Shown piece by piece: positions 5,855 through 64,000 of a DNA stretch of 64,000 bases. The number at the start of each line of letters is the position of its first letter. The stretch's first letter is position 1. The stretch covers positions 4,675 through 68,674 of the forward strand of contig JBDROJ010000023.1 of assembly GCA_043810165.1 (NCBI GenBank). Reading direction: 5' to 3'. Made by a program: the position numbers and the translations under genes. Source of the DNA: a bacterium. GTDB taxonomy: Bacteria > Patescibacteriota > Patescibacteriia > Magasanikbacterales > GWA2-37-8. The notes beneath the pieces are model-generated. The model made no database searches. It was not told the origin of the DNA and was given only the letters and a program-made list of their open reading frames with translations.

Positions 5855-6109
5855 ATGACCATACAGCAATTTATAAAAAAGAGACCATATCTGGTTTGGT
5901 ATACAAAGAATTATGATGAACTCTCTGAAGATGCGATTTTAGAAGCCACTCTTAACTACGGTGATTTTGATGATGTTAAAAAAATGGTAAAAATATTGGG
6001 CATGAGAAAGGCGGCTGATATATTTAAAAAGAAAAATAAACAGAAAAGAAATAATTTCAAACCCCAAGTGTCTCATTATTTTAAATTGTTTTTTAAGCAA
6101 CATGCATAA
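5855..6109 (+). CDS. small protein (84 aa) upstream partner of the AbiEii-like nucleotidyltransferase; putative antitoxin/partner
   Basis: Overlaps the downstream gene by 8 nt (ATGCATAA). No recognisable domain by eye. Confidence 0.45.
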   Translation: MTIQQFIKKRPYLVWYTKNYDELSEDAILEATLNYGDFDDVKKMVKILGMRKAADIFKKKNKQKRNNFKPQVSHYFKLFFKQHA

Positions 6110-6716
6110 AGAAGTATTGAACCAAAAACAAACAGAACTACTACCTTTATTAAAGAAGTTTAATAAAGATTTTGGTTTAGTTGGTGGTACAGCTATCGCC
6201 TTACAACTTGGTCATCGTCAATCAATAGATTTTGATCTGTTTTCTAATAAGCCAATTAAGCCGAGTGATATTCGACGTAAGATAAAAGGAGTTGCTAATA
6301 TAGATAAGGTATTAATTAATGAGAAAGATGAGTATACGGTTATTGTCAATGGGGTAAAAATTACTTTTCTTTTTTATCCATTTAAAATAAAATTTTCTAA
6401 ATCGTTGTCAAATATTATAAAATTACCTGATCTAAAAACATTGGCAGCAATGAAGGCATATGCCCTAGGTAGGCGAGCTAAATGGAAAGATTATGTTGAC
6501 CTATATTTTATTATGAAAGATAAGTATGGTATAAAATCGGTGACGAAAAAGGCCAAACAGATTTTTGAAGAAGAATTTAATGAGAAGATATTTAGAATAC
6601 AATTAAGTTATTTTAAAGATATTGATTATACTGAAAAAGTAGAATATACCAACGATCAGAAAACACCAGATTCAGTTATCAAAAAAGAATTAAAAGATAT
6701 CAGTTTAAAAATTTAA
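6102..6716 (+). CDS. nucleotidyltransferase, AbiEii/AbiGii-toxin-like family (DUF1814-type)
   Basis: GGTAIALQLGHRQSIDFDLF matches the GS...D.D nucleotidyltransferase signature of the AbiEii family. 204 aa. Confidence 0.6.
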   Translation: MHKEVLNQKQTELLPLLKKFNKDFGLVGGTAIALQLGHRQSIDFDLFSNKPIKPSDIRRKIKGVANIDKVLINEKDEYTVIVNGVKITFLFYPFKIKFSKSLSNIIKLPDLKTLAAMKAYALGRRAKWKDYVDLYFIMKDKYGIKSVTKKAKQIFEEEFNEKIFRIQLSYFKDIDYTEKVEYTNDQKTPDSVIKKELKDISLKI

Positions 6717-8618: not shown

Positions 8619-9170
8619 ATGAATGGTCCTAACAAGACCAAGCTGGCTGAGATGATGGGAGTTTCAAGACGATTATTGTATTATGACCACAAACAACCAA
8701 ATAAAGATTGGGAGTTAAAGACCAGGATAGAACTAGCCTTGCAAAACCATCCTAGCTATGGACACAAAAGACTAGCCACCTATTTAGGCAGAAACAAAAA
8801 AGCAGTACTAAGAGTGATGAATATGTTTGGCATTAAGCCATACCGACGAAAAGGCAAAAAATACAAGTATATTAAGCTAAAAAAGGATAAGATATTTACC
8901 AACCTGCTTTTTGAAGACAAACCACAGTGTCCCAATCACATCTGGGCTTCTGACTTTACCCACATAGCTAAGTTTAACAATAAGTGGGTTTATCTGGCCA
9001 CTATACTAGATTTATTCACTAGAAAGATTGTAGGTTTTAGTATTCTAATGAATCACAGTAACCAACTGGTTATAGAAGCTTTGCTAATGGCCATATTTAC
9101 AAATAATCTAGCAAGAGTTAATTCAAAGACAGCCCAAATAGGTTGTCTTTTTAGTAACTCCAGCACATGA
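8619..9170 (+). pseudogene. IS3-family transposase OrfB, 3'-truncated (integrase core incomplete)
   Basis: HTH_21-like N-terminus and the first DDE motif region are present; the rest of the catalytic core is missing. Confidence 0.55.
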
Positions 9171-9523: not shown

Positions 9524-9597
9524 GCGGTAGTAGCTCAGTTGGCTAGAGTGTTTCCTTGCCAAGGAAAAGGTCGCCGGTTCGAATCCGGTCTACCGCT
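9524..9597 (+). tRNA. tRNA-Gly (anticodon GCC)
   Basis: Acceptor GCGGTAG/CTACCGC, D-arm TAGCTCAGTTGGCTAGAG, anticodon stem TTTCC/GGAAA with loop TTGCCAA, T-loop GTTCGAATC. Confidence 0.85.
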
Positions 9598-9649
9598 CTT
9601 GTTCTAAATAGGATCTACAAAGCAATTTCTAGTTTAAGATCACAAATAT

Positions 9650-9721
9650 CGCGGGGTAGAGCAATGGCAGCTCGGCGGGCCCATAACCCGCAGGTTCCCG
9701 GTTCGAGTCCGGGCCCCGCAA
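9650..9721 (+). tRNA. initiator tRNA-fMet (anticodon CAU) with the C1:A72 mismatch and three G-C pairs at the base of the anticodon stem
   Basis: CGCGGGG...GGGCCCATAACCCGC...GTTCGAGTCCGGGCCCCGCA+A closely parallels bacterial initiator tRNA. Unpaired C1/A72 and the GGG/CCC anticodon-stem end are the initiator hallmarks. Confidence 0.85.
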
Positions 9722-9722
9722 C

Positions 9723-9769: not shown

Positions 9770-10822
9770 TTAGTTGTTAGACAATTCCTTCCTATAGTGA
9801 TGGGCGTACATCTCCCACATGGATAATAACAGCGCAGCTACAATCGGACCGATTATGAATCCGGAGATGCCAAACATCACGATTCCTCCCAGAGTAGAGA
9901 ATAGGATTAGTAGAGGATGCATATTGGTATCTTTGCCAATCAATAATGGTCGTAATAAATTATCAATTGTGCCGATTACAGTGGCACCAAAGATTATTAT
10001 TACCATGCCTTGCCAGACATTTCCGGCAATCAACATTATTATTCCGGCCGGCAACCAAACAATTGATGAACCAACGCCTGGAACAGCGGCCGCCACTATC
10101 ATTATGATGCCCCATACCAAAGCGCCTTCAACTCCGGCGATTATAAAAATAATAGAGCCTAGAAAACCTTGCACAACTCCAATAATCAGAGTTCCTTTAA
10201 TGGCGGCTCGAGCCGTTGAGGTAAATTTGTTATAGAGCATTCTTTCGTTTTTATCGCCCAGGGGAGATAAATACATTAATTTTTTAAGCATATCCTGTCC
10301 ATCGCGTAGGAAATAGAATAGTGTGTAAAACATAATAATGAACATTGCCACAAACAGGAGCGAATTTTGAGTTAGATTTTTTAAGCGTATGAAAATAAAG
10401 GACGTAATTGTTTTGGTAACATCGGAAAATTTTGATACTAGCATTTCTTCATCTATATTTAGATTTTTAGTCAGGGTATTGTTTTTAACCCAATTGACAG
10501 TTTCTTGTACATTTCCAATTATTTGTCCTTTGTTGTTATCAATAGCTGCATAAAGATCCAACGATTCTTTTATAAGCAGACTGCTTAATAAGGTTAAGGG
10601 GATCACGATGATTATAAAAACAAATAACAAGGTTATCATGGCGCTAAGATTTTTCATCTTAAGGTGCCTGGCTAGTTTCAAGTGGATTGGGTAGAAAATA
10701 CTGGCAATTACTGCCGCCCAAAATACCGGCAGGAGAAATGGCTTTATCACATAAAAAAATGCTATTGTGATAAAGGCTAGCAAGCCAAAGAATAAAATGG
10801 TGCGTAGTTTGGCAAAGTCCAT
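9770..10822 (-). CDS. AI-2E family transporter (PerM/UPF0118)
   Basis: 350 aa, 8 TM helices, conserved C-terminal GISGFIIGPIVAALLLSMW-type segment typical of the AI-2E family. Confidence 0.75.
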   Translation of the reverse strand: MDFAKLRTILFFGLLAFITIAFFYVIKPFLLPVFWAAVIASIFYPIHLKLARHLKMKNLSAMITLLFVFIIIVIPLTLLSSLLIKESLDLYAAIDNNKGQIIGNVQETVNWVKNNTLTKNLNIDEEMLVSKFSDVTKTITSFIFIRLKNLTQNSLLFVAMFIIMFYTLFYFLRDGQDMLKKLMYLSPLGDKNERMLYNKFTSTARAAIKGTLIIGVVQGFLGSIIFIIAGVEGALVWGIIMIVAAAVPGVGSSIVWLPAGIIMLIAGNVWQGMVIIIFGATVIGTIDNLLRPLLIGKDTNMHPLLILFSTLGGIVMFGISGFIIGPIVAALLLSMWEMYAHHYRKELSNN

Positions 10823-10870: not shown

Positions 10871-12289
10871 TTAAGACAGGGTCTTTTTGGATAGTATCTC
10901 TTTGATTGTCTGCTTAGAAATTATTTTTAGAGCCAAGCCCAGTGTTCCATATATTATCATCCCATAAACAATAGAGACTAATACATGAGGCGATGGAAGG
11001 ATGTAAACCAGATAACCCATGACTGCACTGGAAAAAATTATTTTTAGAAATACTTTGCCAGAAGGCCAGAGTTTGGCGTAATAACAAGCCAGCATCATTA
11101 AGCCCAAGCCCGCATAAACTTGAGAGAAAACTGCTACAATAACCGCTCCCCAAACTCCGTACAAAGGTATTAGAATTATATATGCTGTTAACGATATAAT
11201 TGCATCAGTTACATAAATCCACATGCTTTGGCGTTGTTTTCCAATTGCCAAAGCAATATGGCCGAAGATCATGCCAAAGACAATTCCAAGCATGGCCAAG
11301 GTGAATACGCGCAAGATAATTCCTGAAGAAATAAATTCATGGCCACCAACTAATTTCATAATTGGAGTGGATAAAACCAGTATGCCGACAATCATTGGTA
11401 AGACCATTAAATTTACCAGATCAAAACTCATTTGAAAATATTTTTTAAATTCTTCGGATTTTTTGCTTGCCCAAGCGTGAGTAAGCAATGGCAACATAAT
11501 GCCCATTATCATGGCGATTACTTGTGCAACTATTTCCACTACCCGAAAAGCTGCGCCATACAGGCCCACATCAACCTGGCTGGCATATAGCGGTAAAATT
11601 ACTTTGTCGCTTTGTAAGTAAACCGCATTGAAAACCACTGCAATGGCCACGGGCCACATTTTTTTAAAAATATCTTTGGATATTTTTTTATCTAGACAAA
11701 GTTTAATCCTATCACTGCGCAACCACATATAGCCGGTGTAAATACTGGCAGCCACTGTGATCACAAACATCATGGGCAAGAAGCCGTAACTGCCAATCAT
11801 CATTAATGATAACCCTGCTACAAGTACAAGACGGCTAAGCACTTCAGCAGTAACTTGAATTATCATTTTTAATTTATGCTGATAATAACCTATGAAGACG
11901 TGGTTTAGGGATATAAAAAAGAAGGAGAGGGACAAAACCAATACGCCCATTTTTATGGTGTGAGGATATGGCAAAAATAAGAATATAACCGGTGCTGAAC
12001 CATTAAATATCAAGGCTGTGATCAAGCGCCAAGTAAATAAATTATTAAAAAGTTTTTTCTGGTCATGTTTAGATTCAGACAGCATGCTGGCTGTGACAAC
12101 GGAAAAACCGAAATCACAGAGAATTCCAATGAATAGCAAAAAGCCGGTGGTAGTTACATACCAGCCAAATTGTTCCACGCCTAGATGGCGGGTCATGATG
12201 GCAACAGCCAAAAGACCTAAAAAAGTACTTATGGCTTTGCCGATCAACTGGATCATTGTATTGTGTGCGATTTTTTTGGTGGTGGACAT
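10871..12289 (-). CDS. polysaccharide biosynthesis protein / oligosaccharide flippase (Wzx-like, MOP superfamily)
   Basis: 472 aa, ~12-14 TM helices. The N-terminus (TMIQLIGKAISTFLGLLAVAIMTRHLG) resembles Wzx/PST-family exporters. Confidence 0.7.
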   Translation of the reverse strand: MSTTKKIAHNTMIQLIGKAISTFLGLLAVAIMTRHLGVEQFGWYVTTTGFLLFIGILCDFGFSVVTASMLSESKHDQKKLFNNLFTWRLITALIFNGSAPVIFLFLPYPHTIKMGVLVLSLSFFFISLNHVFIGYYQHKLKMIIQVTAEVLSRLVLVAGLSLMMIGSYGFLPMMFVITVAASIYTGYMWLRSDRIKLCLDKKISKDIFKKMWPVAIAVVFNAVYLQSDKVILPLYASQVDVGLYGAAFRVVEIVAQVIAMIMGIMLPLLTHAWASKKSEEFKKYFQMSFDLVNLMVLPMIVGILVLSTPIMKLVGGHEFISSGIILRVFTLAMLGIVFGMIFGHIALAIGKQRQSMWIYVTDAIISLTAYIILIPLYGVWGAVIVAVFSQVYAGLGLMMLACYYAKLWPSGKVFLKIIFSSAVMGYLVYILPSPHVLVSIVYGMIIYGTLGLALKIISKQTIKEILSKKTLS

Positions 12290-12416
12290 ATTGGTTTCAT
12301 TATAACATCTTTTAGCAGAAAAGTAGAGATTGGTCGTTGACCAAATGTAATTATTATGGTATTAATTTGATTAGATTCCTAGATAACACAACCAATGGTT
12401 TGATAAGGATATAAAG

Positions 12417-12953
12417 ATGACAAGACCTGATGATCTGATTGTTAATACTTGGCCTACAGATACTAGGGTTTGTGTTGATGCAAATGGCGTGGTGCGCGCC
12501 ATCACCCTTAGTCTTATGCCCGGTTTGAGGGACAGAGTTGGCATGGATGCGGATTACGATACCTATCGGCGATTGGGCAAAGATGGGAGGTATCGTAGAG
12601 TGCACAATCTGTACGGGGCCTGCCGTGCTCATCGTTATGCATCTGAATTTGAGTTGAATGATGAACGTCTGTCAGTCCGTGGTATTGAGATATGCAATGA
12701 TTTGGGGGTAAGATTGGTCGGGATTGGCAGTCACACGACAGATGAACGGCTGATCACCGAGATTCTGTACCCAGTTCAACGACAATTGTTGATTCTCAAG
12801 CGCGTCTATGACGATCAAAAAGTCAAAGCGCGTTGTCACTTTGAACGCATGGCCGATCTTAAGGATAGCCGTGGGCGGGATAACCCCGGTGCCAAACGGG
12901 TCAGTGGTGTGGTCGCGCGTGTTGCATGGGATAGAAGGTCGGCAAATATTTGA
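12417..12953 (+). CDS. hypothetical protein (178 aa) in GC-rich island B
   Basis: SD (aagga, 7 nt) before the ATG. Protein-like composition. Overlapping alternative-frame ORFs on both strands make the call uncertain. Confidence 0.35.
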   Translation: MTRPDDLIVNTWPTDTRVCVDANGVVRAITLSLMPGLRDRVGMDADYDTYRRLGKDGRYRRVHNLYGACRAHRYASEFELNDERLSVRGIEICNDLGVRLVGIGSHTTDERLITEILYPVQRQLLILKRVYDDQKVKARCHFERMADLKDSRGRDNPGAKRVSGVVARVAWDRRSANI

Positions 12954-12989
12954 CGCATCCAACCATGGCTTAAGTTCTATGACGAGGCC

Positions 12990-13412
12990 ATGCGTGCCAG
13001 GATCATGCAAATTCAATGGCACTTGGAGCAGGCTCGTGGTGTGTATTCTCAAATCAAGAGTTGGTATTGGCAACGTGGGTATGATAATCGCCTTCAGTTC
13101 AAAGATCGAGACGCCATGCTGGTCAAGCTTCGCTACCACATTAGCCGGCTTAACATCAAGCCATACAGGCGGCATTACTTGCATCTATGGAAAGAAGCTG
13201 AAATCATGCAAAATTGTTCTGGGCATGATTGGTATGATCTTTGGGATATGGCTGACCGCGGTTTTCAATCTGCAGGGTTGATGCTGGCGCGTAAGCGGTT
13301 AGAGTTGGCCAAGATGCATCTGCGACTGGCTGGATTAGGCTCTGCAGTGTATGTAGCCTTGTTACCCACCTGTTTTTTTCTAAGCCTAGTACATATGTAC
13401 GGTACCGGGTAA
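12990..13412 (+). CDS. hypothetical protein (140 aa) with a C-terminal hydrophobic segment, island B
   Basis: gaggcc-ATG SD-like context. GC-rich. Follows the previous ORF after a 36-nt gap. Confidence 0.3.
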   Translation: MRARIMQIQWHLEQARGVYSQIKSWYWQRGYDNRLQFKDRDAMLVKLRYHISRLNIKPYRRHYLHLWKEAEIMQNCSGHDWYDLWDMADRGFQSAGLMLARKRLELAKMHLRLAGLGSAVYVALLPTCFFLSLVHMYGTG

Positions 13413-13523
13413 GCCAGTCCGGGCAACCAAAATTCCAAGGAGGTTGTCACCAGCCTCCGCCATTTGTCATAAATTTTTATGACAAGCGGTTGATGCTGGT
13501 GGCAAAATTTTTTTAGATATCAA

Positions 13524-13556
13524 AAAACACTCGGAGATATTCTTGAGTGTTTTTTA
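13524..13556 (+). terminator. intrinsic terminator (aacactc-ggagatattctt-gagtgtt + T-run)
   Basis: 7-bp stem followed by ttttttattt. Confidence 0.5.
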
Positions 13557-13708
13557 TTTATACGGATTTTGTTTTCTCGGTCTAATACTCCTTATTACAA
13601 AGTACCAAAGAATATTAGCGGACCGAGATAAAGCAAAAACCTTACACCCAATCCGCCTCAACCCTATGTTTTTGTTGAAGTTTTTTGGGCGTGATCCGAG
13701 GGAGTGTT

Positions 13709-14047
13709 TTATTTTTCTACCTCCTCGGACTTGGCCAGCTCGGCGTTGATTTTGGCGGACAGCCATGGAGCCAGCTGATCCACCACGATGTCCTTGGCCA
13801 CTCCGATGACCTCCGGGTAGTGTTGGCTCAGGAATTCCTTGATTTTCTTTCTCACTGTCTCGTACTGGGCTTCACCGCCGGCGTTGCCGTTGTCGGTCAG
13901 GTCCATATCAAATTGCTTTTCAGGCCAGTCAGACTCAGGCTTGTTGTCCACCTGCGCCCAGAAGGTTACTCTGGCCTGTTCTTTTTTTTCTCCGAACTTT
14001 TTGAGCTCAATTTTTTGACTAATTAGAGCTGAAAGTATTGGAATCAT
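13709..14047 (-). CDS. hypothetical acidic protein (112 aa), GC-rich, canonical SD
   Basis: AAGGAG 7 nt before the ATG at 14047. Protein-like sequence. The opposite-strand ORF 13685..14026 is rejected. Confidence 0.5.
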   Translation of the reverse strand: MIPILSALISQKIELKKFGEKKEQARVTFWAQVDNKPESDWPEKQFDMDLTDNGNAGGEAQYETVRKKIKEFLSQHYPEVIGVAKDIVVDQLAPWLSAKINAELAKSEEVEK

Positions 14048-14169
14048 GTTGAATGCTCCTTCACATAGGGTAATTATAGGCTAGCAGAAAAAACAGGTCA
14101 TGTAAAGCCCTGAACTCGGGATCCTGTGGATTAAATAAAATCGTTTTTTGTGTTATACTATTACTTGTT

Positions 14170-16296
14170 ATGAAATTGAATTTTAAATTAAAATTATCAA
14201 TTTGGCTTCTGCCTTTACTGGCTGGTTTTGTGTTGTTAAATTCGGCTAAAGCTAGCGAGTTTACCCCGCCAGAGGCCAAATATTTCAGTTATCAAGCTCG
14301 ATATTATAGCCAATCAATTGAGGATCCTATTACCATGGAAGCCGGCAGTACAAAAGAAGTGGTAGTTAAATTCAAAAATTCCGGGCAAAAGATATGGCCG
14401 ACTGATGGATGGAATTATGTTTCAGTTTATACGGTTAATCCTAATTATGGAGCCAGTGATTTGGCAGATCCAAGCTGGCTAAGCGATTATCATCCCATAT
14501 TGATTAGTAAACAAACTGCGCCCGGAGAAATCGGGGAATTTAAAATTAAATTAAAAGCACCGGACAAAATTGGAGAGTATAAACAAGATTTTAATTTAGC
14601 GGTTGAAGACTCCACTTGGATTAAGGGTGGTTATTTTTTTCTTAAAGTCAAAGTAATTCCGGCCAAGCCAAAATATAATTTTACCAAAGAATTGAATGTG
14701 GGCGATGACGGAGAAGAAGTAAAACAATTACAGTTAAAATTAAAAGAATTGGGTTATTATACTCATTCAGAAATAACCGGATATTATGGTGATTTGACGA
14801 AGCAGGCTGTGGTTGAATTCCAAAAAGCAAATAAATTAGAACCTTATCCAGGGTTTGTAGGTCCTGGCACAAGGGCAATTTTGAATAATATGTCTGACGT
14901 CGGTAAGGTTGAGAAGAAAGAAGCTCAATCGGCTGTTGTCCCCATTTCAACAAGTCAAAAAGACAAAGAGGTTGTGCAATTAAATAATGATTATCAAGCC
15001 GACATTATTGGGATTACAAGCAATCGTATTGAAGTCAAAGGAGGTCAACGAGTCAATTTTAAAGTGATATATAATAATTCCGGTGAAAAAACTTGGAATC
15101 AGTATGTTTTGCGCGAAGCCGGCAGTCAGGCCAGCACCAGTATATCCATAGCCAGCGTAAAAGAAATTAGTTTGGCTGATGAAACTTGGCTGACCGATAA
15201 AAAGGTAGTGAGTGGCAGTGGTGTTATAGCTCCGGAAGATGTTTTACGAGTAGCTTTTAATTTTCGCGCGCCAGCTAAAAAAGGAGTATATATAGCTAGG
15301 TTTGATTTAAATATTGATGGGCATATTTTAAATGGAGGCAGTCTGGAAATTCCTGTGATTGTGACAGAAGATGCGCCAACTAATTATCAAGCTCCGGTTT
15401 TATCCGCTGACCTTAGCAATCGAGATTTAATTAAGGAGCCTGATATTAAAGTAGGATTGTATAGCAGTGAAGATCCGGTCAAAGTAAAATCGCCTGTTAC
15501 TTATTTAATATATTCAGGAGATGAATACCGCGGTTTGTTGGTTCCTAACACCGAAGCGATTTTAAGTTATAGTAACGGGATTTATAAATACAAAAGCGTA
15601 GGCCTTGAATTCACCAGTAATAAGCATTTACGTTTGATGCCCGGGACAGCGGACGGGTATTTTATTCTGCCCGAATATGTGCGCACAGTTTCATGGCGAG
15701 GCGACAAAAGCTTCAATGCTTATCGCGGTATTTTGGAATATATTTACTCTCCGCGTAAAAATATACCATATATTGTAAATGAATTGCCATTGGACGCATA
15801 TGTTGCAGGAATAGCTGAAACTTCAAATGAAGCACATGCTGAATATGCCAAAGCTATTTTGGTGGCGGCTCGTAGTTATGCTTATTACAGTATTAATAAT
15901 GGTACGCCAAAAGACCAGCGTACCTTTGATGTTTATGGTAGCACAGTAGATCAATTATATTTGGGGTATATTTCTGAAACATTGATGCCACGCATAGTGC
16001 GGTCGGCCAAAGATACTTACGGAGAAATGGTAACATATAATCGTGAACCTGTTATTACTCCATATTTTGGCCATTCTGACGGAATTACGCGTACCTGGAA
16101 GCAGGTCTGGGGCGGTAGTGATAAACTTTGGATAAAACAAGTTAATTGCGAATATGACCAAGGACTGAGCATGTATGGCCATGGTGTGGGAATGAGCGCA
16201 CGCGATGCATCTTATCGCGCCGGTAAAGATGGTTGGGATTACAAGAAAATATTAAAATATTATTATTCAGGAGTAGAAGTGGAGAAAATTTATTAG
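14170..16296 (+). CDS. secreted SpoIID/LytB-domain protein with a peptidoglycan-binding (PG_binding_1-like) domain
   Basis: Signal peptide (MKLNFKLKLSIWLLPLLAGFVLLNSAKA). LKLKELGYYTHSEITGYYGDLTKQAVVEFQ is a PG-binding repeat. The C-terminal ~300 aa has SpoIID/LytB motifs (LDAYVAGIAETSNEAHAEYAKAILVAARSYAYY, YGEMVTYNREP). Confidence 0.75.
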   Translation: MKLNFKLKLSIWLLPLLAGFVLLNSAKASEFTPPEAKYFSYQARYYSQSIEDPITMEAGSTKEVVVKFKNSGQKIWPTDGWNYVSVYTVNPNYGASDLADPSWLSDYHPILISKQTAPGEIGEFKIKLKAPDKIGEYKQDFNLAVEDSTWIKGGYFFLKVKVIPAKPKYNFTKELNVGDDGEEVKQLQLKLKELGYYTHSEITGYYGDLTKQAVVEFQKANKLEPYPGFVGPGTRAILNNMSDVGKVEKKEAQSAVVPISTSQKDKEVVQLNNDYQADIIGITSNRIEVKGGQRVNFKVIYNNSGEKTWNQYVLREAGSQASTSISIASVKEISLADETWLTDKKVVSGSGVIAPEDVLRVAFNFRAPAKKGVYIARFDLNIDGHILNGGSLEIPVIVTEDAPTNYQAPVLSADLSNRDLIKEPDIKVGLYSSEDPVKVKSPVTYLIYSGDEYRGLLVPNTEAILSYSNGIYKYKSVGLEFTSNKHLRLMPGTADGYFILPEYVRTVSWRGDKSFNAYRGILEYIYSPRKNIPYIVNELPLDAYVAGIAETSNEAHAEYAKAILVAARSYAYYSINNGTPKDQRTFDVYGSTVDQLYLGYISETLMPRIVRSAKDTYGEMVTYNREPVITPYFGHSDGITRTWKQVWGGSDKLWIKQVNCEYDQGLSMYGHGVGMSARDASYRAGKDGWDYKKILKYYYSGVEVEKIY

Positions 16297-16440: not shown

Positions 16441-16759
16441 TGACCTGTTTTCCAAGCTAGTATTACAAAGAAGCCAGAAATCTTGGAGAATTTCGCTTAA
16501 ATTAGCCTTGCCTGGCAGACAGGCGGGTCAAATCACGGCAAATTTACCACATTAATTTGCTGTGTGCAAGGAACATAAACATGCTAACCTTGCCATTTTT
16601 TTATAAAATTTAGTATTTTAACAAAAAACGCCACTTTATGGTGGAGTTTTTTATTATCAAAAGCGATAAACAGTAGTAAATAGCGAATTGTTGTTATTAT
16701 CTATTTACTATTGTCTATCGTCTATTAATTATTTACTATTTTACTAATCAAATATTACT

Positions 16760-59017: not shown

Positions 59018-59117
59018 CTTCAGCTCTCCACTTCTGATGGTTGTTAAGAATAGCAATCACCAGAAGAGAGCTGAAGTTGTAATTAAAAAATACCGATTAT
59101 GTCGGTATTTTTTTTGT
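59018..59117 (+). terminator. long interrupted hairpin (cttcagctctc...gagagctgaag, ~16 bp) followed by the intrinsic terminator aataccga-ttat-tcggtatt + T9
   Basis: Read directly from the sequence, downstream of 58508..58975. Confidence 0.55.
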
Positions 59118-61990: not shown

Positions 61991-62026
61991 ATGATTGTTT
62001 TATACCCTAAAAATAGATTAGGGTGT

Positions 62027-62195
62027 TTAAGGCACTGTCGCCAAATACCATTTTGACTAAAAATTACATATTTCGGCCATAATTTCTGAAAAATTTTTTA
62101 GCTTAGCTAAGGCTAAACCGTAAAATTTGTTCAAAAATTCTGGCTCAAAATCTAAAATTTTTATTTCAAAAACGTATTTGGCGACAGTGCCTTAA
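62027..62195. repeat. 169-bp element bounded by perfect 22-bp terminal inverted repeats (ttaaggcactgtcgccaaatac / gtatttggcgacagtgccttaa) with an AT-rich interior
   Basis: Read directly from the sequence. MITE-like architecture. The interior contains a TTGACT - 18 nt - CATAAT promoter-like motif. Confidence 0.6.
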
Positions 62196-62307
62196 TTATT
62201 ATTCTATTATTGTATCACGGAACTGTACAAAGGTAAAATTACAAAACAAAGAGATTGTGGTTTATGAATGTGATTTCGGAAACAAAAATAGATTTGTTTT
62301 AATACAA

Positions 62308-62337
62308 CAAATACCAAGTTCATAAACTTGGTATTTG
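62308..62337. repeat. 13-bp perfect hairpin caaataccaagtt-cataa-aacttggtatttg sharing its 12-mer arms with the outer inverted repeat of the 34575-34760 element
   Basis: aaataccaagtt and aacttggtattt occur at both loci. Could also act as the Fic terminator. Confidence 0.55.
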
Positions 62338-62587
62338 CGTCAATTTAATATATTTATCAATTCCAATTTTTTCGATAAAGTATCTATCATGAGATACAAT
62401 TATTATGGGAATGGGCTGTGATAAAATAGACTTTTCCAATTCTTCTCGAGTACAGCCGATGTTAAATTTTATATGTTATCTTATTCTGTAATAGTTAAGT
62501 CGTTTATAGTTAATGTTGGTACTAATATATGTAGTAAATATTATATCCGATCAGTTTTCAATGGCAAGGGTAGTTTATTCACCATTG

Positions 62588-63655
62588 TTATTTAAAATAA
62601 TTCGCAACCGCAAATTCAATCTGTTCGATAAATATTTTTTTAATATAAGTAATATTATTTTGTTCATAAAATAATAACATAGCTTTCTTATATTCTATAG
62701 CATCAACATTTCTATAAGATAGCATTGGACATTGATTGGCGTGTAGAATAGCATTAGCAATTATACGAGAAGTCCTTTTATTCCCATCTTCAAAAGGTTG
62801 AATATAGGCGATCATAATTAGAAAAACAAAAGCCTTAAGAAAATGATTATTAGTTTTATCTATTTTTTCTGTCAAACAATTAATAGCCTGTTCAATTTTA
62901 TCTTTTTTTGACAATGGCCTGTAAAGAGTCCCTGTAATTCCAACTGAACGATTGCGAAAGTCAGTTTTTATTTCAATTCCTTGAACTAGCGATGAATGAA
63001 TTTCTTTTATTTTACTAATATTAATCTTCTTATTAAAATGGTTAGGTCTTAACAGAATGTAGTCCAAAACTTTTTTATGATTCAATATCATTTGAGCTTC
63101 GGTCTTATTTTTACCTTTGGCAAAAGACATATCTTTAATAAGAAATTCTGTTTCCAATAAAGTATATGTATTGCCTTCTATTTCTGAAGATTTCCATGAC
63201 AAATCAATAACAAGACGCTCCCATTCTTTCTTGAAAATAGTCGAACTTTCTTTTTTTAAAGAATTCACAGTTTTATTATATTTAACTTCAGCTTTTTTGA
63301 GTCTCTCATATTCTTCTTTTGAAAAAACATCCTCTGACAATTGGTTAATTATATCCCTGTCAAAAAAAGGTTTTGCATTTCTTTCACCATGATGAATTGA
63401 AAAATATGTATTCACATCATATTCTTTAATAAGTAAATATTTTTTTGATATTTGATAAGAGACACCACGTCCTTTCCCTTCTTTAGTTAATATTAATTTT
63501 TTAGTTAATAGAGACAAATCTCGAACAATGGTCAATCTTTCAACATCAAATTTGTCTTTTAGATATGCTAAAATATCCTTGGTTTGAAAGGATTTTGTTT
63601 GTTCTGCAAATTTTATTATTTTCTTTTGCCTATTATTTAATTTATCAATATCCAT
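62588..63655 (-). CDS. Fic/DOC-family protein with an N-terminal winged-helix domain
   Basis: Fic motif HPFEDGNKRTSR (matching HPFx[D/E]GNGR). Confidence 0.85.
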   Translation of the reverse strand: MDIDKLNNRQKKIIKFAEQTKSFQTKDILAYLKDKFDVERLTIVRDLSLLTKKLILTKEGKGRGVSYQISKKYLLIKEYDVNTYFSIHHGERNAKPFFDRDIINQLSEDVFSKEEYERLKKAEVKYNKTVNSLKKESSTIFKKEWERLVIDLSWKSSEIEGNTYTLLETEFLIKDMSFAKGKNKTEAQMILNHKKVLDYILLRPNHFNKKINISKIKEIHSSLVQGIEIKTDFRNRSVGITGTLYRPLSKKDKIEQAINCLTEKIDKTNNHFLKAFVFLIMIAYIQPFEDGNKRTSRIIANAILHANQCPMLSYRNVDAIEYKKAMLLFYEQNNITYIKKIFIEQIEFAVANYFK

Positions 63656-63657
63656 AT

Positions 63658-63746
63658 AATTGTATCATATTTGTATTTAATTATGCCGTAATTGTATCAT
63701 ATTCGCAACAAAAAAGCAAGTAATTTGCAATGAAATGATACAATTA
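63658..63746. promoter_or_regulatory. three copies of aattgtatcat (two direct at 63658-63671 and 63690-63703, one inverted at 63734-63746) immediately upstream of the Fic start codon
   Basis: Read directly. The first copy begins 3 bp from the ATG. Each copy contains a -10-like hexamer (tatgat / tacaat on the coding strand). Confidence 0.45.
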
Positions 63747-63931
63747 ACCTGTTGTTTTAGAAGTTTTTAGTTAACCTTAGCCAAGTAGCTCCCCAGATGG
63801 AACGAATTTCGAGCTGTTTTGGCTAATTTTAGGCAAGAATTTTTTCAAATTCAATCCACCTAATAATTAACCCAATAACATTAGTTTTCTAAATCTTGAT
63901 AAACAAAATCTTTTATTTTTCCAGAATAAAA

Positions 63932-64000
63932 TTATTTTTTATTCTTTTTTGATGGAGTCCTTTTTGTGACTTTTTTCTCCGCTGCTTTAATTGCCTGCAA
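63932..64000 (-). CDS. C-terminal end of an unidentified gene (lysine-rich tail ...LQAIKAAEKKVTKRTPSKKNKK), partial at window end
   Basis: Minus-strand frame open from the window edge to TAA at 63934-63932. Confidence 0.2.
   Translation of the reverse strand: MQAIKAAEKKVTKRTPSKKNKK

Follow-up and report, generated by a model that had tools for sequence, protein, structure and literature searches.

An interrupted member of a rare protein family and an intact small gene in a GC-rich flippase/SpoIID spacer

Gene content and composition of the spacer

The window analysed here, a 64-kb stretch of DNA from a streamlined, probably Patescibacteria-type genome, contains a GC-rich segment at positions 12420–14050 (44–53% GC against a background of ~37%). 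It occupies the divergent spacer between a flippase gene of the polysaccharide-synthesis family and a SpoIID-domain peptidoglycan-binding gene. In 300-nt windows, the GC content is 0.44–0.51 over 12350–13100 and 0.46–0.47 up to 13550, falls to 0.40 at 13400–13700, and rises to 0.53 at 13700–14000, whereas the flanking genes lie at 0.35–0.40 and the whole window at ~0.37. The deviation extends to the third codon positions, with a GC3 of 0.46–0.51 in ORF1 and ORF2 and 0.62 in ORF3, against 0.31–0.41 in the genes flanking the stretch. Such a departure from host composition is typical of genomic islands; the tRNA target, flanking direct repeats, and integrase of a classical island were not found. 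The nearest tRNAs (9524–9722) are ~2.6 kb away, past two syntenic host genes. A Pfam scan of the ORFs near the island revealed no integrase within it, and a truncated rve domain at 8619–9170 lies outside. The features of the segment are as follows.

12353–13515, plus strand: segment that L005, the closest relative found, lacks; ~1.16 kb either inserted or deleted, with approximate boundaries (pairwise DNA alignment)
12417–13412, plus strand: single 331-codon gene comprising ORF1 and ORF2, divergent within its rare ~380-aa family and probably a pseudogene
12951–12953, plus strand: in-frame TGA, codon 179 of the fused gene (translation and alignment column)
13444–13514, plus strand: intrinsic terminator of the interrupted gene, a 30+30-nt imperfect hairpin followed by T7 at 13508–13514
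13522–13555, no single strand: bidirectional intrinsic terminator (A6-stem-loop-T6), common to L005
13567–13638, minus strand: long ORF3 3'-UTR hairpin conserved in L005 (fold and counterpart there)
13709–14047, minus strand: ORF3 (MFH1291932), an intact 112-aa gene with a product of pI 5.1 (mildly acidic) and a homologue in L005
14056–14101, minus strand: putative expression signals of ORF3 (promoter scan and sequence inspection)
12672–13184, minus strand: spurious 170-aa shadow ORF on the strand opposite the real gene
12808–13281 (plus), 12354–12632 (minus), and 13685–14026 (plus): other spurious shadow ORFs

A first-pass annotation had described this segment as a GC-rich island, away from tRNA genes, carrying three ORFans in uncertain frames. 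The compositional windows bear out the GC-rich stretch, and we agree with its foreign composition, its distance from tRNAs, and the strands assigned to its genes. The three ORFs are all present, namely ORF1 (178 aa, 12417–12953) and ORF2 (140 aa, 12990–13412) on the plus strand and ORF3 (112 aa) on the minus strand. Sequence inspection also confirmed an SD-like site before each: AAGGA at 12405–12409, 7 nt 5' of the ORF1 ATG; GAGG at 12983–12986, just 3 nt 5' of the ORF2 ATG; and AAGGAG (the reverse complement of 14056–14061), 8 nt 5' of the ORF3 ATG. As had been stated, none of the three ORFs matched an annotated family in Pfam, PHROG, PADLOC, or NCBIfam scans. The overlapping alternative-frame ORFs (12672–13184, 12808–13281, and 13685–14026) exist as well, and can be dismissed as spurious. 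The host-codon scores of the shadow ORFs are all negative (−0.065 to −0.18), ORF3 has the best score of the candidate ORFs (0.126), and no homologue aligned in a shadow-ORF frame by tblastn. Homology decides which frames code, and coding statistics clearly favour one frame, which removes the uncertainty. The count of three genes does not stand either: as set out below, ORF1 and ORF2 are halves of one gene, leaving two. Neither is strictly an ORFan, the fused gene belonging to a very rare family of 5–6 representatives and ORF3 having one homologue at the same locus. By eye, the fused product and ORF3 show no signal peptide and no recognisable enzyme motif; both proteins appear to be soluble and cytoplasmic.

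The interrupted gene and its protein family

ORF1 and ORF2 lie in the same frame and are separated on translation by one TGA; NCBI lists them as two hypothetical proteins, MFH1291930 and MFH1291931. Their joint frame contains 2 stops in 332 codons, whereas 20,000 shuffles of the same composition averaged 17.6 and never had fewer than 5; the frame is therefore not open by chance but recently coding. An exhaustive HMMER search with the fused 331-residue product identified four matches of 376–381 residues, each aligned as one stretch across the TGA. These proteins (P0028–P0031) gave E values of 9.7e-11, 7.9e-10, 1.1e-8, and 3.3e-5 over query residues 29–306 (phmmer, 1.84 billion representatives). 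With tblastn, each homologue yielded one HSP (E 6e-16 to 5e-11), spanning 12501–13364 in the fused frame. A sixth relative, L019, carries an identical LKDSRGRDNPGA motif and likewise aligns across the TGA position. Every homologue is one uninterrupted protein, and the alignments identify ORF1 and ORF2 as the two halves of one gene.

The window copy shares 21–24% identity with the family proteins. The fused product and the family have in common an invariant N-terminal Trp, an LP..R.K segment, LKPY and ELAK.H motifs, and a DK..A[KR]...DS[KR]GR.N.G core. W12, P35, and the DS.GR.N.G motif are invariant in the alignment. The core loop of the window protein reads DQKVKAR...LKDSRGRDNPGA, in which D150, S151, G153, R154, N156, and G158 are invariant. 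The protein thus joins the family by significant sequence similarity and by the core loop motif D-S-[KR]-G-R-x-N-x-G following DK[VI]xA[KR]. It departs from the family in two respects. In place of an uninterrupted frame of 376–381 codons, it has 331 codons in total with the TGA at codon 179, and the C-terminal helices bearing D.GF[KR][QN][PK][VI] are absent from the fused ORF and from all six frames. Homologue residues beyond ~320 found no counterpart in any of the six frames of 12200–13800 by tblastn; the window copy lacks the C-terminal ~55–60 residues of the family, including the conserved D.GFKQPV block.

At the TGA column, the window reads ANI*RIQPW, compared with ANIGSMAPW, NRVRGMRPW, NSIRSMDAW, and GKIGRIEPR in the homologues. 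Since the homologues have Gly or Arg at this position, one base substitution in a GGA or CGA codon would suffice to create the stop. The fused gene is thus most likely a recently inactivated pseudogene, and would yield at best a 178-aa N-terminal fragment. The stop codon comes from a single metagenome-assembled contig; it may instead reflect a sequencing error or be a minority allele, and the gene would then be whole save for its short C-terminus. The short C-terminus may in turn be a subfamily trait rather than decay, because the L019 relative shows that family ends vary.

The known family members are P0028–P0031 and the L019 relative; those at NCBI are MBU0596808.1 and MBU1895619.1, each named ‘hypothetical protein [Patescibacteria group bacterium]’. 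In the predicted family structure, an N-terminal domain of five beta strands is combined with a long helical bundle, and Foldseek returned no structural neighbour of the confident AlphaFold model, solved and viral structures included. There was no usable match in Pfam, PHROG, NCBIfam, PADLOC, or the PDB, and family membership therefore tells nothing about function. One homologue of the four had a borderline ISL3 score (23.1 bits against a cut-off of 23) in a helical stretch, which we judged spurious. The family is very rare. In capped scans, the family alignment found one locus in GTDB genomes and only L019 in JGI metagenomes. An IMG/VR scan for the family gave no match, nor did phage and plasmid collections, searched with the region by blastn and with P0029 by tblastn. 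In a word-indexed protein search, ORF1 returned itself alone, whereas the exhaustive search with the fused ORF succeeded.

The fused gene occurs once in its contig, and its homologues are likewise present in one copy per contig. They often form GC3-rich islets within AT-rich, Patescibacteria-type contigs: GC3 is 0.69 in a host at 0.27–0.29 (L013) and 0.71 in a host at 0.32 (L018), while in L016 it is 0.33, equal to the host. In L013 and L018, as in the window, the GC-rich gene stands in an AT-rich genome alone or with unrelated small ORFs. Family proteins only 27% identical are found beside UvrA genes that are 80% identical. No conserved non-coding element follows the family gene, each homologue being followed by an ordinary, unrelated terminator. 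The family appears to evolve much faster than its neighbouring genes and to move between genomes. Because of this 27% against 80% for UvrA, and because GC3-rich single-gene islets recur, its behaviour would suit a conflict gene (defence, counter-defence, or selfish).

ORF3, terminators, and hairpins

ORF3 has a homologue at the same locus in L005, a 112-aa ORF at 742–1080 with 29% identity (BLASTP, E 4e-12). At 19 of the 33 identical residues the two genes differ in their synonymous codon, and differences by codon position number 55/47/78. The same length and position of the homologue, together with this synonymous-substitution pattern, argue that ORF3 is a real protein-coding gene maintained as a protein. 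A single-sequence AF2 model (pLDDT 70) shows three strands and two long helices. A promoter scan placed a promoter-like site, ATGACC-17-TATAAT, at 14101–14073 (10/12 matches), which may serve ORF3, and inspection placed the SD at 14061–14056. These signals lie back to back with the TGTTATACT extended -10 of the SpoIID gene (14143–14151), and on inspection the L005 homologue is also preceded by a comparable TTTACA-17-TAATCT and AGGAGG. ORF3 has a GC3 of ~0.62 in both genomes, which share just 57% identity in SpoIID, and this counts against a single old acquisition followed by drift to host composition. No relative of ORF3 was found in phages by tblastn, its patterns had no match in JGI metagenomes, and the word-indexed protein search returned ORF3 alone.

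Folding confirmed the terminators that had been placed between the ORFs. The palindrome gtcataaatttttatgac at 13466–13483, also noted at first pass, forms the tip of a 62-nt hairpin (13444–13505) with a dG of −36.3 kcal/mol (z −7.5; 0 of 200 shuffles as low). As this hairpin is followed by T7, we assign it as an intrinsic terminator. The adjoining bidirectional terminator has z scores of −4.4 and −5.7 on the two strands, and its L005 counterpart (575–615) one of −6.0. The third element, in the 3' untranslated region of ORF3, comprises an 8-bp basal stem, an interruption, and an upper stem of ~12 bp. It folds on the minus strand with −29.3 kcal/mol (z −5.4), and the corresponding L005 hairpin (612–682) with −29.4 kcal/mol (z −6.05). 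Its arms are conserved between the two genomes (CTCGGTC...TAGCGGACCGAG), with one compensatory change from A-T to G-C. In both genomes the interruption includes CGC on the 5' arm; it is a 3-nt bulge in the window and a small internal loop in L005. This hairpin may stabilise the RNA, terminate transcription, or serve as a recombination site. When its pattern was searched in viral contigs, three chance matches fell in coding sequence of GC-rich phages, with no hairpin.

Comparison with relatives and origin of the stretch

The AI-2E transporter, flippase, and SpoIID genes are syntenic in relatives, with other genes instead of the AI-2E transporter in L012. The flippase–SpoIID distance is 33–172 bp in L004 and L006–L012, and the spacer has no insert, with flippase directly beside SpoIID, in seven distinct contigs of more distant relatives. 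L001 and L002 carry an unrelated 1.4-kb insert, whereas the L005 spacer contains only ORF3, its hairpin, and the terminator. Homology of the left flank to L005 extends to ~12352 (AAAAGTAGAG...CCAAATGTAAT) and restarts on the right at ~13516, at the common terminator; the intervening segment carries the interrupted gene and its own terminator. The stretch is therefore not the one island of the first-pass annotation: L005 has the ORF3 part without ORF1/ORF2, so that the two parts are separable, and they were probably gained or lost independently. Neither terminal inverted repeats nor target duplications were found around the insert, and neither a donor nor a mobility gene for the stretch. A search of GTDB genomes with the SpoIID protein gave no match. 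This comparison shows the spacer as an apparently recurrent insertion site.

We consider it likely that the stretch combines two separable single-gene modules, each acquired horizontally and one of them now a likely pseudogene. Module 1 (~13516–14101, minus strand) would consist of the intact ORF3 with its own promoter-like site, SD, 3' hairpin, and bidirectional terminator. Module 2 (~12353–13515, plus strand) would have brought one gene of the ~380-aa family and a strong terminator, the gene then acquiring the TGA at codon 179 and losing its C-terminal ~55–60 residues. The high GC content, chiefly at third codon positions, would be a signature of the donor, not yet erased by drift towards host composition. 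The gene structure, homology, presence/absence pattern, and hairpins are observed here; the horizontal origin, the order of events, the loss of function, and the expression are inferred.

Several other readings were weighed against this composite. It is improbable that ORF1/ORF2 is functional, through readthrough or recoding of the TGA (including a code-25 donor with UGA as Gly) or as two separate polypeptides. The frame is otherwise intact, with one stop in 331 codons that aligns with Gly in two of the four homologues, and an AGGA lies 4 nt 5' of the PGAP start of ORF2 (P0027) at 13005, NCBI annotating two proteins. However, TGA is an ordinary stop in the host (8 of 49 long ORFs), the homologues are all single proteins, the stop falls where the family model predicts an unbroken helical region, and the conserved C-terminus is also gone. 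A code-25 donor predicts several in-frame TGAs, whereas one is present. Selenocysteine is likewise unlikely, the homologue column being Gly or Arg and not Cys; on inspection, the only structure downstream of the TGA is a 6-bp stem closing a 16-nt loop, which does not fit a selenoprotein gene. That ORF1/ORF2 and ORF3 form one coacquired two-gene module (toxin/effector with immunity/antitoxin, or a defence pair) is very improbable. The genes are adjacent, GC-rich, and fast-evolving, ORF3 is small and mildly acidic, and an orphan immunity gene next to a decayed toxin is a known pattern. Against this, the two do not co-occur, since L005 has ORF3 without the large gene and L013–L018 have the large gene without an ORF3 relative. 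They are also convergent with two terminators between them, and neither was matched in PADLOC, Pfam, or PHROG.

The hairpin beside ORF3 raises the possibility, in our view very unlikely, that the spacer captures and exchanges GC-rich single-gene cassettes by site-specific recombination at this structure (attC-like or another att). As in an integron cassette, the small promoter-proximal ORF has an imperfect ~70-nt hairpin at its 3' end, where attC would be. Unpaired bases (CGC at the stem interruption) are kept on one arm, and the cargo (29% amino acid identity) is far more variable than the hairpin arms (3' arm 12/12). Independent captures at one site would explain why ORF3 is GC3-rich in two diverged genomes, and a third relative has a different insert in the same spacer. 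However, inspection found no RYYYAAC/GTTRRRY core sites (R''/R') at the hairpin base, no tyrosine recombinase was seen adjoining the hairpin, and a promoter-like site precedes ORF3 itself. The 64-kb window contains the hairpin only once, with no array, long terminator-like hairpins are common in the host genome, and the L001 insert has MITE-like repeats without a hairpin of this type. The likeness to an integron cassette is one of geometry alone. Finally, a structured non-coding RNA with incidental ORFs, or an assembly chimera, is extremely unlikely. In AT-rich genomes, a GC-rich island is often an RNA gene, and the present island is unique to the window contig. Rfam, however, gave only three tRNAs in the whole window at gathering score and nothing credible in 12200–14200, with weak matches far below at E up to 10. 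The frame is defined by protein homologues, and the substitutions are distributed as in coding sequence. A chimera, which the first-pass annotation had considered at ~12350 and 14050, would require two joins at exactly matching positions, whereas the flanks on both sides are conserved, syntenic, and collinear with relatives, and the independent L005 assembly confirms the order flippase, terminator, hairpin, ORF3, SpoIID.

The composite of two modules resembles reported Patescibacteria islets of transferred orphan genes in its deviating GC and GC3, its hypothetical genes, its presence/absence polymorphism among relatives, and its gene decay (PMC12455944); transfers among Patescibacteria are reported there as common. 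It differs from such islets in having two separable single-gene units rather than one block, with no integrase, tRNA target, direct repeat, or further sign of mobility. An insertion sequence was also considered and rejected. Like IS200/IS605 elements, which have subterminal hairpins and a TnpB of ~400 aa, the ~1.2-kb unit has a small palindrome near its left edge (12330–12344), a large right-end hairpin, and one ORF of 330–380 aa. Unlike in them, Pfam gave no transposase match for the window protein, whether OrfB_IS605, zinc-ribbon, or Y1, the homologues are followed by ordinary, non-conserved terminators, and each contig holds a single copy.

The region is thus an ordinary small horizontal-transfer islet with unannotated genes, and nothing points to a new kind of system. 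It offers a small, well-delimited case of gene gain and decay. Of wider value than the window copy is the family itself, a very rare, unannotated group whose confidently predicted fold has no structural neighbour, which makes it a reasonable, non-urgent target for structural or functional study. We regard it as unlikely that the family, perhaps with ORF3, represents a new class of fast-evolving mobile Patescibacteria genes with a new fold, for which the ORF3 hairpin is a capture site; if so, the hairpin would mark a structured recombination site in the flippase/SpoIID spacer. For annotation, MFH1291930 and MFH1291931 should become one interrupted gene.

Gene content of the GC-rich stretch

The 68.8-kb host contig, from an NCBI metagenome-assembled genome (locus tags ABIH87_019xx), is AT-rich, with ~37% GC. 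Between its flippase and SpoIID genes, the GC content is 0.44–0.51 over 12350–13100 and 0.46–0.47 to 13550, then dips to 0.40, and peaks at 0.53 over 13700–14000. This confirms the markedly GC-rich stretch of the first-pass annotation (0.44–0.53 against the contig background), and the ORFs of 178 and 140 aa (ORF1 and ORF2, plus strand) and 112 aa (ORF3, minus strand), the SD-like sequences, the palindrome and the terminators all lie where it had placed them. At the end of the window (62001–64000) the GC content is 0.27–0.28, well under the 0.37 background.

Features of the GC-rich stretch and its neighbours
10871–12289, minus strand, flippase gene (Polysacc_synt), left neighbour
13444–13514, terminator of the interrupted gene, −36.3 kcal/mol, z −7.5, followed by T7
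13522–13555, bidirectional terminator common to the window and L005 (the closest relative found), beyond the hairpin reading from ORF3
13567–13638, minus strand (ORF3's own), 72-nt hairpin 3′ of ORF3, −29.3 kcal/mol, z −5.4
14170–16296, plus strand, SpoIID-domain peptidoglycan-binding gene, right neighbour

Judged by sequence comparison, ORF1 and ORF2 are one gene. They share one frame and are separated by a single TGA (12951–12953) and twelve sense codons. ORF1 alone returned only itself in a word-indexed protein search. The fused 331-residue query, with X at the stop, was run in an exhaustive HMMER search against 1.84 billion cluster representatives and matched four proteins of 376–381 aa (E 1e-10 to 3e-5), each aligning without a break across the stop from query residue ~29 to ~306. 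Searched back against the region with tblastn, each of the four gave one HSP in the ORF1/ORF2 frame (12501–13364, E 6e-16 to 5e-11). L019, a further relative of 377 aa from a JGI metagenome, has the motif LKDSRGRDNPGA of the window copy unchanged and can likewise be aligned through the TGA. At the position of the stop, the four homologues have Gly, Arg, Arg and Gly in the multiple alignment, so that mutating a single base of GGA or CGA would be enough to make the TGA. The frame contains 2 stops in 332 codons, whereas shuffled sequences average 17.6 and have at least 5; since it is otherwise intact, any inactivation would be recent. The window copy is also ~55–60 residues shorter at the C-terminus than its homologues, whose C-terminal helices and D.GFKQPV block are not encoded in any frame of 12200–13800.

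The coding stretch proposed earlier thus stands, with two genes in place of three. The coding frames, previously called uncertain, are fixed for ORF1/ORF2 by the homologues, and the overlapping ORFs in other frames, which score below zero on host codon usage and lack homologues, were rejected as shadow ORFs. In the NCBI annotation the two halves are separate proteins, MFH1291930 and MFH1291931, with the start of the second put at 13005. The islet should instead be annotated as an interrupted gene plus a small gene, ORF3.

A rare family of about 380 residues

In a collection of ~15 billion proteins, each of the four full-length relatives, as well as L019, is a singleton or close to one, and those members that carry a name are called only "hypothetical protein [Patescibacteria group bacterium]". 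One borderline score apart, members had no match in Pfam, NCBIfam, PHROGs, PADLOC or PDB sequences, and none were found in phage, plasmid or IMG/VR collections. An ISL3-transposase assignment was rejected, as its borderline score occurred in one member only, within a helical stretch. For one homologue, P0029, AlphaFold gave a confident model (pLDDT 87, pTM 0.77) with an input of only five sequences. It predicts a five-stranded beta domain at the N-terminus and, after it, long helices, among them one of 63 residues, and places the invariant DS.GR.N.G motif in an inter-helix loop; Foldseek against PDB and BFVD returned only helical-bundle noise. A rare, unannotated family with a confident predicted fold lacking a match is a moderately interesting by-product of this analysis.

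The surroundings of the family gene vary between contigs:
L013–L015, flanked by an aminoacyl-tRNA-synthetase-like gene and a peptidase M17 gene
L016 (2080–3210) and L017 (1298–2434), adjoining the 3′ end of uvrA
L018, adjoining a Dus gene

Every homologue is followed by an ordinary terminator, unrelated from case to case, so the family gene has no conserved non-coding partner. The GC at third codon positions (GC3) of the family gene is 0.69 in L013 (host 0.27–0.29) and 0.71 in L018 (host 0.32); in L016 it equals that of the host, 0.33. Between the related contigs L016 and L017, identity is 80% for the C-termini of the adjoining UvrA proteins and only 27% for the family proteins; the family thus either evolves very fast or is swapped for distant versions of itself. 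The GC-rich islet around the L013 gene (900–3300) holds two more orphan ORFs on the opposite strand, of 137 aa and 177 aa (the latter membrane-protein-like), with GC3 of 0.50 and 0.61.

ORF3 and the spacer in relatives

ORF3 returned only itself in the word-indexed protein search. Contig L005, from a Logan assembly, whose SpoIID protein is the closest to that of the window (57% identity), carries a minus-strand 112-aa ORF at exactly the same position, directly upstream of SpoIID and in divergent orientation to it. Identity between this protein and ORF3 is 29% (E 4e-12), and VTFWAQV, PE..WP and H[YW]PE occur in both. Synonymous codons differ at 19 of 33 identical residues, and differences by codon position number 55/47/78, a pattern that points to selection on the protein. 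Both genes have donor-like GC3 (0.62 in ORF3, 0.63 in L005), and ORF3, like the ~380-aa family, has diverged very fast relative to its gene neighbours. ORF3 has the highest host-codon score among the candidate ORFs, a promoter-like site (10/12 matches) and an AAGGAG SD. In its single-sequence model (pLDDT 70), two long helices accompany three strands, and the search for structural neighbours gave nothing significant. In the window and in L005 alike, a spacer of ~80–120 bp also holds a conserved extended −10 of the SpoIID gene, TGTTATACT (14143–14151; L005 1128–1140), set back to back with that promoter-like site.

The hairpin 3′ of ORF3, single-copy within the 64-kb window, has an L005 counterpart (−29.4 kcal/mol, z −6.05) with identical arms, CTCGGTC...TAGCGGACCGAG; a single A-T pair is replaced by G-C as a compensatory change, and CGC is kept where the stem is interrupted. 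Further near-perfect hairpins of 50–60 nt occur at 1150–1205, 1928–1982, 16664–16720 and 59018–59076; long hairpins thus seem general to the genome and not special to the islet.

The AI-2E transporter, flippase and SpoIID genes are syntenic in relatives with SpoIID proteins 39–57% identical, except in L012, where other genes occupy the transporter's place. The flippase–SpoIID distance is 33–172 bp in L004 and L006–L012. The L005 spacer holds only a terminator, the hairpin and the ORF3 homologue, and in the DNA alignment the extra DNA of the window (~12353–13515) comprises the interrupted gene and its own strong terminator. L001 and L002 carry an unrelated 1.4-kb insert (L001 8541–9958), with a 196/216-aa ORF, lacking any Pfam match, between ~80-nt inverted, MITE-like repeats (8662–8741, 9780–9860). 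Together, these comparisons indicate that the "island" consists of two separable units and that the spacer repeatedly takes foreign DNA.

Origin of the islet

The islet is genuine, but as a small product of horizontal transfer it is ordinary, and it probably represents a nested pair of acquisitions. One would have brought an intact small gene, ORF3, together with signals of its own for expression and termination; the other would have been a copy of the rare Patescibacteria family, disabled recently. We infer the horizontal origin, the sequence of events and the functional loss from base composition, from which relatives have or lack the genes, and from how the interrupted copy compares with intact homologues. 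Frequent horizontal transfer has been reported among Patescibacteria (PMC12455944).

Among the alternatives, ORF1/ORF2 acting as a functional recoded or split gene is unlikely, if the least so; TGA is a normal stop in the host (8 of 49 long ORFs). A hairpin-mediated capture site would account for ORF3 staying GC-rich in two diverged genomes, but core sites at the hairpin base, a neighbouring integrase and an array were not found, making it quite improbable. Marginally less credible still is a coupled module of ORF1/ORF2 and ORF3, which the missing co-occurrence of the two genes contradicts. That the stretch is a non-coding RNA or an assembly chimera is very improbable: against the chimerism considered in the first-pass annotation, both insert flanks are collinear with relatives, and the independent L005 assembly repeats the order flippase, terminator, hairpin, ORF3, SpoIID.

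Upstream of a tRNA-Gly/tRNA-Met pair (9524–9722), the window also carries an AbiEii-type nucleotidyltransferase toxin gene (6102–6716) and a truncated ORF of the rve type (DDE integrase core; 8619–9170), both left over from other mobile DNA; this stretch is probably the tRNA-adjacent island A of the first-pass annotation.
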